NCBI GenBank assembly: GCA_014653355.1
Contig: JACWEO010000001.1
Location: 12,912 to 76,911, forward strand
Source of the DNA: Pelagibacterales bacterium SAG-MED47
GTDB taxonomy: Bacteria; Pseudomonadota; Alphaproteobacteria; Pelagibacterales; Pelagibacteraceae
Direction of reading: 5' to 3'
DNA: 64,000 bases
The notes below the pieces were generated by a model. It did not search any database. It was not told where the DNA came from and was given only the letters and a program-made list of their open reading frames with translations. Below, piece after piece: positions 21,526-27,205 of the stretch; the first letter of the stretch is position 1; the number at the start of each line of letters is the position of its first letter. The position numbers were made by a program, and so were the translations under genes.

Positions 21526-22701
21526 ATGAGTAATAAAATTAAAGAAGTAGTTATTATTGAGGCAGTAAGAACACCAATCGGTACTTTTATGGGCTCACTA
21601 AGAGATTTAAGGCCAGATCAGCTTGGTTCAATAGTAATAAGTGAAGTGATAAAAAAATCTAGATTTCATAATGAGGAAATTGATGAAGTAATTATGGGTC
21701 AAGTATTAACTGCTGGATGTGGTCAAAATCCTGCAAGACAAGCTGCTATAAATTCTGGTATACCTGTTTCAAAACCAGCTTATTTAGTTAATCAGGTATG
21801 TGGATCTGGACTTAGAGCCGTTATTTCAGGCTATCAATCAATTAAATTAGGAGAATTAACAAATGTAATCTCTGGAGGACAGGAAAATATGTCTAGTGCG
21901 CCTCACTCAATTTTTTACAGACACGAAAAAAAAATCTTAAAAGAAAAATTACTAGATACAATGATTAGTGACGGATTGATTGATGCATTTAATAATTATC
22001 ACATGGGTGTAACAGCAGAAAATATTGCAAAAAAATTCAGTATAAATAGACAACAACAAGATGAGTTTGCATTCAATTCTCAAAAAAAAACAAAAATAGC
22101 TTTAAAAAGTAAAAGATTTAATTCAGAATTAATAACAATAAACAATAATAACAGTATTCTAGATAAAGATGAGCATCCTAGGTCAGAAATAAGACTAGCC
22201 GATTTACAAAAATTGAAAAGTGCTTTTAAAAAAAATGGAACTGTTACGCCAGGTAACTCTTCTGGTATTAATGATGGAGCTGCAGCACTTCTATTAACAA
22301 CTTTACATGAGGCAGAAAAAAGATCTATTGAACCTTTAGCTAAGATAGTATCTTGGGCTTCAGTTGGAGTTGATCCTTCATTAATGGGTTTAGGACCTAT
22401 TGAAGCTGTAAGGGAGGCAGTTAAAAAAGCAAAATGGGATTTGAATGAAGTTGATCTGTTTGAAATTAATGAAGCTTTTGCTGCTCAAAGTATTGCAGTT
22501 ATAAATCAACTAAATATAGATAAAGAAAAAGTAAATGTAAATGGGGGGGCTATAGCTTTAGGGCACCCTATTGGTGCATCTGGAGCAAGAATATTAGTTA
22601 CTCTTATTCATGAAATGAAAAAACAAAATAAAAAAAAAGGTTGTGCAACACTTTGCATTGGTGGTGGGATGGGTATAGCTTTATGTGTAGAGAAAGTTTA
22701 A
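21526..22701 (+). CDS. Acetyl-CoA acetyltransferase (thiolase)
   Basis: QNPARQA, NQVCGSG (active Cys), NEAFAAQ, GHPIGASG, CIGGGMG. Confidence 0.93.
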   Translation: MSNKIKEVVIIEAVRTPIGTFMGSLRDLRPDQLGSIVISEVIKKSRFHNEEIDEVIMGQVLTAGCGQNPARQAAINSGIPVSKPAYLVNQVCGSGLRAVISGYQSIKLGELTNVISGGQENMSSAPHSIFYRHEKKILKEKLLDTMISDGLIDAFNNYHMGVTAENIAKKFSINRQQQDEFAFNSQKKTKIALKSKRFNSELITINNNNSILDKDEHPRSEIRLADLQKLKSAFKKNGTVTPGNSSGINDGAAALLLTTLHEAEKRSIEPLAKIVSWASVGVDPSLMGLGPIEAVREAVKKAKWDLNEVDLFEINEAFAAQSIAVINQLNIDKEKVNVNGGAIALGHPIGASGARILVTLIHEMKKQNKKKGCATLCIGGGMGIALCVEKV

Positions 22702-22910: not shown

Positions 22911-25900
22911 ATGACAGAAAAACTATTAGTTCCTGATATTGGAGAGTTTCAAGATGTAGAGGTAATTGAACTTCTAGTAAAAGAGGGGCAAAAAATTAGT
23001 AAGAATGATCCAATAGTAACGATCGAAAGTGATAAATCGAGTGTTGAAATCCCTTCTACAATTGAAGGTACAATCGATAAAGTAGAGGTAAAGATTGGTG
23101 ATAAAGTTTCTAAAGGTGATCTTTTACTTTTAGTATCTAGTAAAGACAAACCTACATCTACAAAAGAAACAGTTCCTAAAAATACTGAAAATTTAATAAA
23201 AGAGGCAGAAATCTCATTGAAAAAAAAACAGAGAGAAGCGGTAAAAGTTGAGGAAAAAAAATCAGAAATAACTCAAGTTGTAAACAAAGTTGACATCGAT
23301 CCACTCGAAACTAATGAATGGATAGAGTCCCTTTCAGCAGTAATAGAAAAAGATGGAAATCAAAGAGCACATTATTTAATTAAAGAATTAATAAACAAAG
23401 CATATAAAGAGGGAGCAAATATTCCTTATACTCAAAATACTCCCTACATAAATACCATCCCATTTAGTGAAGAAAAAAAATCTAATGGAGATCAAAATGT
23501 AGAAAGAAGAATTAGATCATTAATTAGATGGAATGCCGCCGCAATGGTGGTAAGAGCAAATAAAAAATTTCCTGAGTTAGGAGGTCATATAGGAACTTTT
23601 GCCTCTGCAGCCACTCTATATGATATAGGTATGAACCATTTTTGGAGAGCTAAAAATAATAAATTTGGTGGTGATCTTATCTATTTTCAGGGACATAGTG
23701 CGCCTGGCATGTATGCTAGAGCCTTTTTAGAGGGAAGGCTAAATGAAAAACAATTAGATAGTTTTAGACAAGAGGTTAATCCTGGTGGTCTATCTTCTTA
23801 TCCTCATCCTTGGTTAATGCCAAACTTTTGGCAATTTCCAACAGTCTCTATGGGTTTAGGTTCAATGTTAGCAATTTATCAAGCTAGATATATGAAATAT
23901 TTAATTAATAGAGGATTAATTAAAGATGAAGGAAGAAAAGTTTGGGCATTTCTTGGAGATGGTGAAATGGATGAACCAGAATCTTTGGGTGCAATTGGTT
24001 TAGCAGCTAGAGAAAAATTAGATAATCTAATCTTCGTTGTGAATTGTAATCTCCAAAGACTTGACGGACCAGTTAGAGGAAATGGTAAAATAATTCAGGA
24101 GTTAGAGGGTATTTTTAGAGGGGCTGGATGGAATGTTATCAAAGTAATCTGGGGCTCTTATTGGGATCCTTTATTGGCTAATGATAAAACTGGCCATTTA
24201 ATTAAAACTATGAATGAAACTGTTGATGGTGAATATCAAGCAATGAAAGCAAGAGATGGGGCTTATGTTAGAGAAAAGTTTTTTGGCAAATATCCTGAAA
24301 CTAAAGAATTAGTTTCAAGCCTCTCAGATAAAGATATATGGAGATTAAATAGAGGGGGACATGATCCTCATAAAGTTTTTGCAGCTTATGATAAAGCCTC
24401 AAAAAATATTGGAAGCCCAACAGTTGTGATTGCCAAGACTATAAAGGGTTATGGAATGGGAAAAAGTGGTGAAAGTGTAAATACAACCCATCAAACTAAA
24501 AAGTTAGATATAGATGATTTGATGTATTACAGAGATAGGTTTGATGTTCCTCTAACTGATAAACAAGTGCAAAATATTGAATATTATAAGCCAGACGAAA
24601 ACTCACCTGAAATAAAATATATAAAAGAAAGAAGACTTCAATTGGGAGGATTTATCCCAGAGAGAACTACTTATGCAAAACCCATTAAAGCTCCTCCAAA
24701 AAATATTTTTGACAATATGAAAGAATCAACAGGTAAAAAAGAAATGTCTACCACGATGGCATTAGTAAGAATGCTTACTAATCTTCTGAGAGATAAAAAT
24801 GTTGCCTCAAGATTAGTTCCAATTATTCCTGATGAGGCGAGAACATTTGGTATGGAAGGTTTTTTTCAAAAAATTGGTATTTATGCTCATGAAGGACAAA
24901 AATATGAACCTGAGGATTCAGCACAATTAAGTTCATATCGAGAAGAAAAAAGTGGACAAGTTTTGGAGGAGGGAATTAATGAGGCAGGTGCCATGTCTTC
25001 ATGGATTGCTGCAGGTACTTCTTACACAAATCATGATATTGAAATGATCCCTATCTATCTTTTTTACTCAATGTTTGGTTTTCAGAGAATAGGTGACTTT
25101 GCTTGGGCAGGAGCAGACAGTCAATCAAGAGGATTTTTAATTGGTGCTACTGCTGGGAGAACAACACTAGCAGGAGAGGGTTTGCAGCATCAAGATGGAC
25201 ATAGTCATTTAATGGCATCAACAATTCCAAATTGTAAGTCTTATGATCCAACATTTCATTATGAATTAGCAACAATCTTTAGAGAAGGATTGAAAAGAAT
25301 GCATGAGAAGAAAGAAAATATTTTTTATTATATCACAACAATGAACGAAAATTACCCTCATCCTGCTATGCCAGCTGAAAAATCATGTGAAGAAGGCATT
25401 TTAAAAGGAATGTATAAAATCAAAGAATTTAACAAATATAAAAAAACTAAAATTCAATTTCTAGGATCAGGCACAATTTTAAGAGAAATGATAGCTGGTG
25501 CTGAAATCCTACAAAAAGAATATCAAATTGATAGTGAAGTTTGGAGTGTAACTAGTTTTAACGAATTAAGAAGAGATGGCTTAGAGGTTGAAAGATATAA
25601 TTTATTAAATCCTGAAAAAGAACCAAAAAAATCTTATGTTGAAAGCTGTTTAGGCGAAACTGAAGGTCCAATTTTAGCTGCATCAGATTATATGAGAATG
25701 AACTCAGACCAAATTAGACCTTATATTAACAAGAGCTTTTACTCGTTAGGAACAGATGGATTTGGTCGAAGTGATACAAGAAAAAATTTGAGGAAGTTTT
25801 TTGAGGTTGATAAAGAGCATGTTGTTACATATGGACTAAGTGTTTTAGCTAAAGAGCAATTAATTGCTTCTAAATATGCTCAAGAGGCAATAAAGAAATA

Positions 25901-25940
25901 TCAAATTGATAAAGATAAACCAATGCCTACAAAATTATAA
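22911..25940 (+). CDS. aceE: Pyruvate dehydrogenase E1, homodimeric type, with an N-terminal lipoyl domain
   Basis: Residues ~2-76 form a lipoyl domain (ESDKSS); then DIDPLETNEW, GGHIGTFASAA, YFQGHSAPG, GDGEMDE (ThDP), QHQDGH. Confidence 0.96.
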   Translation: MTEKLLVPDIGEFQDVEVIELLVKEGQKISKNDPIVTIESDKSSVEIPSTIEGTIDKVEVKIGDKVSKGDLLLLVSSKDKPTSTKETVPKNTENLIKEAEISLKKKQREAVKVEEKKSEITQVVNKVDIDPLETNEWIESLSAVIEKDGNQRAHYLIKELINKAYKEGANIPYTQNTPYINTIPFSEEKKSNGDQNVERRIRSLIRWNAAAMVVRANKKFPELGGHIGTFASAATLYDIGMNHFWRAKNNKFGGDLIYFQGHSAPGMYARAFLEGRLNEKQLDSFRQEVNPGGLSSYPHPWLMPNFWQFPTVSMGLGSMLAIYQARYMKYLINRGLIKDEGRKVWAFLGDGEMDEPESLGAIGLAAREKLDNLIFVVNCNLQRLDGPVRGNGKIIQELEGIFRGAGWNVIKVIWGSYWDPLLANDKTGHLIKTMNETVDGEYQAMKARDGAYVREKFFGKYPETKELVSSLSDKDIWRLNRGGHDPHKVFAAYDKASKNIGSPTVVIAKTIKGYGMGKSGESVNTTHQTKKLDIDDLMYYRDRFDVPLTDKQVQNIEYYKPDENSPEIKYIKERRLQLGGFIPERTTYAKPIKAPPKNIFDNMKESTGKKEMSTTMALVRMLTNLLRDKNVASRLVPIIPDEARTFGMEGFFQKIGIYAHEGQKYEPEDSAQLSSYREEKSGQVLEEGINEAGAMSSWIAAGTSYTNHDIEMIPIYLFYSMFGFQRIGDFAWAGADSQSRGFLIGATAGRTTLAGEGLQHQDGHSHLMASTIPNCKSYDPTFHYELATIFREGLKRMHEKKENIFYYITTMNENYPHPAMPAEKSCEEGILKGMYKIKEFNKYKKTKIQFLGSGTILREMIAGAEILQKEYQIDSEVWSVTSFNELRRDGLEVERYNLLNPEKEPKKSYVESCLGETEGPILAASDYMRMNSDQIRPYINKSFYSLGTDGFGRSDTRKNLRKFFEVDKEHVVTYGLSVLAKEQLIASKYAQEAIKKYQIDKDKPMPTKL

Positions 25941-27205
25941 TGTCAAAGAAAGATATAAAAGTTCCAAATATTGGTGAATTTAAAGATGTGGAAGTAATTG
26001 AAGTTTTAATTAAAAACGGTCAAAAAATAAAAAAGAACGACCCATTAATTACTATTGAAAGTGATAAATCAAGTGTGGAAATACCATCATCTGATGATGG
26101 AACTGTAATCTCTTTAAATGTTAAAATTGGAGACAAGGTATCAGAAGGTGATAAAATTATTGAAATTGAAAGTGAGAAAGAAACAAAAGAAACAAGTGCT
26201 CAGGAATTAACAAAAAATCAATCATCAAAAAAAATAAAAAAAAATGAAGTTAAAAAAGGTAATGCAACTGAAAATATAATAGTCAAAGATTTTTCTGCAA
26301 AAGCTTCAGCATCACCAAAAGTAAGAAAATTTGCGAGAGAACTTGGAGTAAATATTAATAAAGTTCCTGGTAGCGAAAGACAAGGTAGGGTTACTGAAAG
26401 TGATGTGAAGTTATTTGTTGCAACTAAATCTTATAAAAGTTTCAAAGATCAAACTACAACTAAGCAAAAGATTGAACTAGAATATTCTCATTCAGATTTC
26501 GGAGAAGTAGATATTAAAGATATCCCTAGAGTAAAAAAGTTATCATCTAAATATTTAATAAACTCCTGGACAAAAATTCCTCATGTAACCAATCATGATG
26601 AAGCTGATATAACCGAATTAGAGGAATTTAGAACTTCTCTTACGGACGTATATACTGGTGAGAAAAAAAAAATTACTCCATTAGCTTTTATTGTAAAAGC
26701 ATTAACAGCATCATTAAAAAAATTCCCAAATTTTAATACCTCAATCGATGAAATTGAAAACGGTAAAATGACTGTTAAAAGATATTATCATGTTGGCGTA
26801 GCAGTAGATACTCCGCATGGTTTGATGGTTCCTAAATTGAGAAATGCAGATAATAAAAATATTTCTTTAATAAGTACAGAATTGAAAAAAATAAGTCAGC
26901 AATGTAGAGATCTAAAAATTGATAAAAAAGATTTATTTGGAGGCTCTATGACTATAACAAGCCTAGGGGGGATAGGAGGATCTTTTTTTACTCCAATTAT
27001 AAATTATCCTGAGGTTGCAATTTTAGGAGTAGGTAAAGCAGAAAAAAAACAAGTATTTATAGATGGAAAATTTGTAAGTAGAACAATGTTACCTTTGTCT
27101 TTATCTTATGATCATAGAATTATTGATGGCGCGGAGGCAGCTCGATTCAACAATGAACTAAAAGAAAATTTAGGTAAAAACTTTGCCTATAAGTTAGCTG
27201 TTTAA
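25940..27205 (+). CDS. aceF: Dihydrolipoamide acetyltransferase E2 (one lipoyl domain)
   Basis: ESDKSS lipoyl motif, ASPKVRKFARELGV E3-binding domain, DHRIIDG catalytic motif. Confidence 0.96.
   Translation: MSKKDIKVPNIGEFKDVEVIEVLIKNGQKIKKNDPLITIESDKSSVEIPSSDDGTVISLNVKIGDKVSEGDKIIEIESEKETKETSAQELTKNQSSKKIKKNEVKKGNATENIIVKDFSAKASASPKVRKFARELGVNINKVPGSERQGRVTESDVKLFVATKSYKSFKDQTTTKQKIELEYSHSDFGEVDIKDIPRVKKLSSKYLINSWTKIPHVTNHDEADITELEEFRTSLTDVYTGEKKKITPLAFIVKALTASLKKFPNFNTSIDEIENGKMTVKRYYHVGVAVDTPHGLMVPKLRNADNKNISLISTELKKISQQCRDLKIDKKDLFGGSMTITSLGGIGGSFFTPIINYPEVAILGVGKAEKKQVFIDGKFVSRTMLPLSLSYDHRIIDGAEAARFNNELKENLGKNFAYKLAV

Follow-up and report, generated by a model that had tools for sequence, protein, structure and literature searches.

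Why does the aceE gene of a SAR11 bacterium, which encodes the E1 component of the pyruvate dehydrogenase (PDH) complex, open with what looks like a lipoyl domain, where did this domain come from, and what could it do there? The gene lies within 64,000 nucleotides of DNA from Pelagibacterales bacterium SAG-MED47 (contig JACWEO010000001.1, positions 12,912 to 76,911 of the forward strand), and this whole stretch is hereafter called the window. A preliminary description, prepared from the letters and translations of the window, had proposed that a lipoyl domain was transferred from the E2 component (AceF, dihydrolipoyl acetyltransferase) to a homodimeric E1 (AceE). Lipoyl domains on the E3 component (dihydrolipoamide dehydrogenase) are already known; the SAR11 fusion on a homodimeric E1 is, as judged from sequence comparison and structure prediction, real, lineage-wide and a new variant.

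A lipoyl domain ahead of a complete E1

Residues 5-73 of AceE matched the Biotin_lipoyl family (PF00364) at 62.1 bits against a cut-off of 22.1, and the Pfam domain order along the chain was Biotin_lipoyl, Transketolase_N, PDH_E1_M and Transketolase_C_1. The same region matched the lipoyl domains of PDB entries 7b9k, 1gjx and 1qjo in phmmer searches, with E values of ~1e-12 for 1gjx and 1qjo (5e-13 for 1gjx). In an AlphaFold2 (AF2) model of AceE, whose input alignment held 67 sequences, six beta strands were placed at residues 2-6, 16-21, 34-39, 44-48, 53-58 and 71-76, and the predicted local distance difference test score (pLDDT) was 70-87 across residues 1-78; the predicted fold is thus the flattened beta-barrel of ~80 residues that characterizes lipoyl domains. 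Lys42 stands within E-S-D-K-S-S, fitting the rule that the target lysine of a lipoyl domain lies on a hairpin tip, in D-K-[A/S] near residue 42. The loop between strands 1 and 2 of lipoyl domains serves recognition by E1p, the E1 of PDH (PMC6270654), and acidic lipoyl-domain residues dock on the E2 core (PMC8421416). Both features, which are the norm in lipoyl domains of E2p, are retained in the AceE domain: the segment V-P-D-I-G-E-F-Q-D-V-E-V-I-E contains the P-D-I-G recognition loop plus acidic residues, and D/E positions matching the E2-core docking residues are kept. The translation and the Pfam match therefore bear out the earlier statement that the 1009-residue AceE opens with a lipoyl domain with Lys42 in ESDKSS, and its close resemblance to the single AceF domain (Lys43, same motif) was confirmed at 58% identity by BLASTP (E = 6e-33), or 64% over the domain alone. 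The coordinates of the earlier description, 22911-23140, cover residues 1-77. The charged linker that had been described after the domain was likewise found, as K/E-rich residues 78-127.

This linker is variable in length, with 81-106 residues separating Lys42 from the E1 motif in the SAR11 AceE alignment, and residues 79-128 of AceE had AF2 pLDDT values <50, with a predicted helix at 91-106. Two motifs are nevertheless conserved within the genus. Specifically, a semi-conserved helix-like motif, P-K-[DN]-T-E-N-L-I-x-E-A-E, lies at about residues 88-100 (window 23172-23228), and a strand-like motif, E-I-I-Q-V-V-N, lies just ahead of the E1 part (window 23259-23285), its place being taken by R-I-E-I-K in other genera. 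The conserved helix and strand motifs are not accounted for by any of the readings considered below. Note that the likeness of T-E-N-I-I-V-K-D in the AceF linker to the AceE linker motif is limited to the closest strains, and was taken as chance.

The remainder of AceE is a full E1. Residues 128-1006 aligned to residues 7-883 of E. coli E1p (1l8a; 1127 bits, E = 0, phmmer), and Pfam placed PF00456 at 201-413, PF17831 at 607-818 (349 bits) and PF22613 at 833-967. Foldseek comparison of the core of the AF2 model with 4qoy and 1l8a gave template modelling (TM) scores of 0.87-0.92, normalized by target length. The thiamine diphosphate (ThDP)/Mg motif, G349-D350-G351...N378-C379-N380, was invariant across the alignment, and H527, E691 and H760 align to E. 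coli H407, E571 and H640, the catalytic His/Glu residues of that enzyme. The N-terminal region of E1p is known to bind the peripheral subunit-binding domain (PSBD) of E2 (PMC6270654), and this segment is also present, AceE residues 128-150 aligning to E. coli 7-28. AceE thus resembles E. coli E1p (1L8A, 2IEA, 4QOY) in domain order, ThDP motif, the equivalents of H407/E571/H640 and the PSBD-binding segment; unlike the E. coli chain, which starts directly at the E2-binding segment with no other domain, it has a lipoyl domain and a linker before that segment. The alignment to E. coli E1p covers the E1 part from end to end, which means that the extension has been added to the N-terminus and does not stem from a misplaced start. 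By these alignments, SAR11 aceE encodes a complete E. coli-type homodimeric E1p plus 127 extra N-terminal residues.

Distribution, origin and selection

The distribution within the order was examined in 120 species genomes, 60 from the Pelagibacteraceae and 60 from the sister family. An AceE-type gene was present in all 60 Pelagibacteraceae genomes, and in 59 of them it was the lipoyl-AceE fusion, the alignment starting at query residue 1-5. The exception, G095, had only an unfused AceE paralogue, with neither a fused aceE nor aceF. Four genomes from two other genera (G001, G017, G021 and G113) had two tandem lipoyl domains on AceE, in frames of 1111-1133 amino acids (L001:663-4001 on the minus strand, L002, L003 and L004); the inner domain of these proteins carries D-K-S-S-M as its motif and shares 70-77% identity with the AceF domain of the same genome. 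G003, which is sister to the two-lipoyl genomes, has a single lipoyl domain on AceE. AceE was not found in any of the 60 sister-family genomes, and the four of these that were examined further (G002, G004, G006 and G008) encoded no more than one lipoyl protein of E2 size and no E1 other than the SucA type, so that the sister family appears to be without a PDH complex. As a separate observation, a second, unfused AceE paralogue of ~895 amino acids (51-52% identical) was seen at loci L012-L014 (G001:C1:10933-13539, G085:C7 and G095:C4), and fits the multiple aceE copies reported in SAR11 subclade IIIa (PMC10030771).

Outside SAR11, AceE occurred in only 6 of ~397 sampled alphaproteobacteria, none of them lipoyl-bearing, in line with the earlier statement that AceE is not the usual E1 of this class. 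None of the 138 other sampled Pseudomonadota with AceE gave an alignment over the lipoyl domain; this sample includes 51 operons that were examined in detail, none of which had a lipoyl domain on E1, and 16 aceE genes preceded by a long open frame, in whose upstream sequence no lipoyl domain was detected at E <= 1. The claim that E. coli-type AceE normally has no lipoyl domain thus holds. The claim of an unusual PDH architecture holds against these 138 Pseudomonadota, but the architecture is not peculiar to one genome, being family-wide in the Pelagibacteraceae.

In a tree of lipoyl domains, the E1 and E2 domains of SAR11 formed one clade (support 100/97) apart from proteobacterial E2 and E3 domains, indicating that the AceE domain is a within-lineage copy. 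The transfer from E2 to E1 proposed in the preliminary description is supported by this tree, the donor being the lineage's own E2 domain. The fusion evidently arose once, at the base of the Pelagibacteraceae, and has been retained since. Recent gene conversion between the lipoyl segments of aceE and aceF in the window was considered and rejected, the nucleotide identity being 66% and the longest identical run 14 nucleotides.

We also searched AceE residues 1-330 against 1.8 billion representative proteins; the matches were mostly fragments, so that this search is no exhaustive census. It returned one fusion from outside SAR11, P0240, a high-G+C fragment from the archaeal Marine Group II (MGII; Poseidoniales). 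Twelve MGII species representatives have a lipoyl-AceE of ~1000 amino acids, the remaining MGII AceE genes being unfused, and in an order-wide MGII sample the fusion was present in 6 of the 233 genomes with a match. The MGII aceE is not adjacent to an E2 gene; a single one-lipoyl E2 of 412-443 amino acids is encoded on another contig (L015-L026, G890-G894). In a tree of the E1 core, the fused SAR11 proteins formed a clade (support 100) beside proteobacterial AceE, and the fused MGII proteins formed another (support 100) nested in unfused MGII genes (support 99). The lipoyl-domain tree likewise united the E1 and E2 domains of MGII (support 84/84), and identity to the MGII E1 domain is 64-75% for the E2 domain of the same genome but only 35-37% for the SAR11 domains. 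Since both trees separate SAR11 and MGII, the same design has two origins, with each lineage drawing on the arm of its own E2, and horizontal transfer of the fusion between the two groups is ruled out by the same trees. Note that two loci labelled Verrucomicrobiales and Crocinitomicaceae, L045 (NZEQ01000093.1) and L071 (PBWG01000104.1), carry aceE of the MGII (Poseidonia) type; the former is all but identical to a Poseidonia gene in the tree of the E1 core, the latter matched only at the N-terminal region, and both contigs are probably mis-binned.

The column of Lys42 held Lys in 128/128 aligned SAR11 AceE sequences. In this alignment, the most frequent residue of a column reached a mean frequency of 0.88 across the lipoyl domain, compared with 0.64 across the linker and 0.96 across the N-terminal part of E1. 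Pairwise Nei-Gojobori ratios of nonsynonymous to synonymous divergence (dN/dS), which are rough estimates because dS was often near saturation, were 0.07-0.22 for the E1 lipoyl domain, 0.18-0.78 for the AceE linker, 0.02-0.05 for the E1 core and 0.02-0.18 for the AceF lipoyl domain. By these estimates, purifying selection acts on the AceE lipoyl domain but not on the linker. As an observation on the window itself, positions 22911-23141 differ from the closest relatives (L127 and L128) with dN 0.165-0.176 and dS 0.9-1.2, compared with dN 0.013-0.017 and dS 0.56-0.66 for the aceE core; the divergence also far exceeds that of the AceF domain, and the region has the appearance of a recombination breakpoint or of a segment with a locally high rate of evolution.

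A putative E1-borne arm and its alternatives

What could the domain do? We consider it likely that AceE is a working homodimeric E1 that has acquired a functional N-terminal lipoyl domain, that is, an extra acetyl-carrying arm borne on E1. LipA (370 bits) and LipB (145 bits) are encoded in the same genome and would lipoylate Lys42. The partner AceF has one lipoyl domain, a PSBD at 124-157 and a catalytic domain at 194-411 (Pfam); it aligns to residues 207-618 of E. coli E2p (7b9k), the catalytic motif DHRxxDG is present, and R197 is the counterpart of E. coli E2 R407. The only Lpd of the genome (G000:C4:26135-27517) has no lipoyl domain and lies downstream of sucB. A SucA-sized E1 gene upstream of sucB was the only strong PF00676 match in the genome, and an E1-alpha of the alpha2-beta2 type was not found in this search.

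In the mechanism we favour, the E1-borne arm would be reductively acetylated at an E1 active site, either of its own dimer or of a neighbour, would then swing to the AceF core, where the acetyl group would be handed to coenzyme A, and would be re-oxidized by the one Lpd of the cell, the gene for which accompanies sucAB. Because it is tethered just upstream of the PSBD-binding segment, the arm should emerge near the node of E2's own arm, and the geometry suggests that the linker of ~50 residues, together with the flexible N-terminal segment of E1, would be long enough to serve its own dimer as well as sites nearby. Acetylation by E1 of its own arm, in cis, is plausible from the domain arrangement, and the data are equally compatible with acetylation in trans. 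The number of arms per E2 chain would rise from one to two, and to three in the genera with two copies. In relatives, similar numbers would be reached through two or three E2 domains or through a dedicated E3 that bears a lipoyl domain; SAR11 has no dedicated E3.

The operons of these relatives bear on this point. An E3 with one or two N-terminal lipoyl domains directly follows aceF in 21 of 47 proteobacterial aceE-aceF operons (L111-L121, L133-L172), the combination of lipoyl and Pyr_redox_2 domains being confirmed by Pfam in two cases; together with PDB entries 1gjx and 5u25, this agrees with the earlier statement that extra lipoyl domains on E3 are known. The adjacent E3 was lipoyl-bearing in 11/16 operons whose E2 has one lipoyl domain, in 10/20 with two and in 0/11 with three, counts that are descriptive, the genomes being related. 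This pattern suggests that peripheral subunits supply arms where E2 carries few. In several relatives, the E3 and E2 lipoyl domains of one genome were each other's closest relatives in the tree, which suggests repeated duplication or homogenization. An E3 lipoyl domain of relatives was also considered as the ancestor of the SAR11 E1 domain, and since duplication and homogenization give the same pairing on the 83 columns of the tree, the tree neither favours nor rejects this descent.

Several points weigh against an acetyl-carrying arm on E1. That Lys42 is lipoylated, becomes acetylated and can enter the active sites of E2 and E3 is deduced from sequence. The E. coli E2-core lysines that contact the lipoyl domain, K391 and K396, are acidic in SAR11 AceF. 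Most MGII archaea have one arm on E2 and none elsewhere, and an extra arm is no general requirement, since they manage with that single E2 arm. Compared with its closest relative, the E1 lipoyl domain of the window has dN 0.165 and the AceF lipoyl domain has dN 0.016; the E1 domain is thus under looser constraint, having diverged much faster. The operon pattern, drawn as it is from related genomes, is no statistical test. Finally, the function of the analogous lipoyl domains on E3 and E1-beta is not known to have been settled.

Even so, other explanations of the domain appear less likely than a swinging arm because the lysine is invariant, the domain is under purifying selection and has been duplicated repeatedly, and MGII arrived at the same fusion by convergence. 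The best surviving of them, to which we give a small chance, is that the domain aids assembly by binding the E2 core or E3, adding avidity that holds E1 on the small complex of a one-arm E2 without net acetyl flux. The E2-core docking surface retained on the domain would suit this role, and the linker sub-motifs (the helix at 91-106 and the strand-like motif) would be superfluous in a passive tether. On the other hand, tethering would require neither the lipoyl-lysine that is invariant in all aligned sequences nor the full E1p-recognition loop, and E1 still has its canonical PSBD-binding segment.

A regulatory or redox role is clearly less probable. Here the E1-borne lipoyl group would sense the acetyl or redox state and gate E1, or would feed reducing equivalents elsewhere, as in the peroxidase relay reported for mycobacterial Lpd and DlaT. 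No gene linked to aceEF is an obvious partner, the neighbours being a thiolase, an EamA transporter and UppP, and nothing specific indicates regulation in a domain so close to the catalytic E2 arm; what speaks for such a role is that the independent gain in two oligotrophic surface-ocean lineages hints at a common environmental pressure, and that the function of E3 lipoyl domains is itself not known to be settled.

It is slightly more improbable still that the domain is a neutral relic, an old and tolerated duplication that is neither lipoylated nor used. It is true that the E1 core evolves more slowly than the lipoyl domain, that in one pair the AceF domain does so too, and that the genome without a fused aceE also has no aceF. 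A relic would, however, hardly be expected to show dN/dS values well below 1 and an invariant Lys42, or to keep its frame in 59/60 species of a lineage known for genome streamlining, and the domain was moreover re-duplicated in some genera and gained convergently in archaea. That the lipoyl domain is a separate small gene, or that the true start lies downstream, is scarcely credible and was rejected: nothing beyond the general possibility speaks for such an artefact, the frame is continuous and stop-free in 59 genomes, closed ones included, the AceE of the window has no Met between the lipoyl domain and the E1 part, and the linker stays in frame despite its changes in length.

The acetyl-carrying E1 arm can be extended into a wider proposal, which we regard as possible yet doubtful. 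The number of arms per PDH would be a selected quantity that can be met via E2, E3 or E1; SAR11 would have lost the lipoyl-bearing E3 of an ancestral aceE-aceF-lpd operon on streamlining to a shared Lpd and moved the arm to E1, where it would be acetylated in cis as a private acceptor; and the gain in MGII would reflect a shared adaptation of surface-ocean oligotrophs living on scarce pyruvate.

Locus, known systems and meaning

The window has a G+C content of ~28%, and its proteins are 88-94% identical to those of Candidatus Pelagibacter (SAR11). On the plus strand, aceE and aceF are preceded by a thiolase gene and followed by a gene for an EamA-family transporter; UppP/BacA is encoded on the opposite strand, and gltD/gltB come afterwards. 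The aceE stop and the aceF start overlap by one base. Matches in a promoter/terminator scan were no more frequent than in shuffled sequence. The coordinates are collected in Table 1.

Table 1. Features of the aceE-aceF locus, in window coordinates
Feature	Position	Strand	Basis
Thiolase	21526-22701	+	
aceE, 1009 aa	22911-25940	+	Single open frame
N-terminal lipoyl domain of AceE (residues 1-77)	22911..23141	+	PF00364, PDB matches, AF2 model
Lys42 codon, predicted lipoyl-lysine, motif E-S-D-K-S-S	23034..23036	+	Translation
K/E-rich inter-domain linker (residues 78-127)	23142..23291	+	AF2, alignment
Homodimeric-type E1 proper (residues 128-1009), including the PSBD-binding N-terminal segment	23292..25940	+	phmmer, Pfam, Foldseek
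aceF, E2 dihydrolipoyl acetyltransferase, 421 aa	25940..27205	+	Pfam, PDB alignment
AceF lipoyl domain (residues 1-80), nearest to the E1-borne domain and probably its source	25940..26179	+	Pfam, BLASTP, tree

Compared with known systems, the SAR11 complex distributes its lipoyl domains differently from that of E. coli, which has three on E2, whereas SAR11 has one on E2 and one on E1. The lipoyl-bearing E3 proteins (P64K of Neisseria meningitidis, 1GJX; 5U25; the Ralstonia PdhL type) share with SAR11 AceE an N-terminal lipoyl domain and a flexible linker on a peripheral subunit, in complexes with an AceE-type E1, but their carrier is a flavoprotein E3 (Pyr_redox_2) and not E1. An N-terminal lipoyl domain is reportedly found on E1-beta (PdhB) of Zymomonas mobilis and of some other alphaproteobacteria; this is also a lipoyl domain on an E1 subunit, but the enzyme is a heterotetrameric alpha2-beta2 E1 whose chain organization is unrelated to AceE. 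The lipoyl-AceE of an MGII subclade (Poseidoniaceae) is similar in the order of lipoyl domain, linker of ~45 residues and AceE, in its length and in having a domain closest to that of its own E2, and differs in its T-D-K-A-T motif, its P/A/E-rich linker, the non-adjacent aceF and its independent origin. The actinobacterial OdhA/KGD proteins also join E1 and E2 parts of a 2-oxoacid dehydrogenase in one chain, but in those proteins the fused part is the E2 catalytic domain and the lipoyl domain is borrowed from PDH E2, whereas in SAR11 the lipoyl domain is fused and the catalytic core is separate (PMC10415282).

The preliminary description had allowed that the fusion might already be widespread and characterized. 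It is widespread, and no paper on a lipoyl domain of homodimeric E1 in SAR11 or MGII was found in the literature searched; a SAR11 genomics paper treats aceE copy number without mention of a lipoyl domain (PMC10030771). Public database entries hold the sequences and their Pfam architecture and are annotated only as E1 of the "homodimeric type"; the annotation "pyruvate dehydrogenase, homodimeric type" thus hides the extra lipoyl domain.

SAR11 bacteria, which rank with the most abundant organisms of the ocean, depend on a supply of pyruvate or of its precursors, and their PDH is therefore a major route of marine carbon flux. This PDH appears to be unlike the textbook machine of E. coli, with a single arm on E2 and either one or two on E1. 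It offers a natural experiment on three old questions of 2-oxoacid dehydrogenase enzymology: why complexes have several lipoyl domains, whether an arm works only when attached to the E2 core, and what purpose the extra domains of E3 and E1-beta serve. Given the two independent origins of the fusion in unrelated plankton, an adaptive explanation deserves testing.

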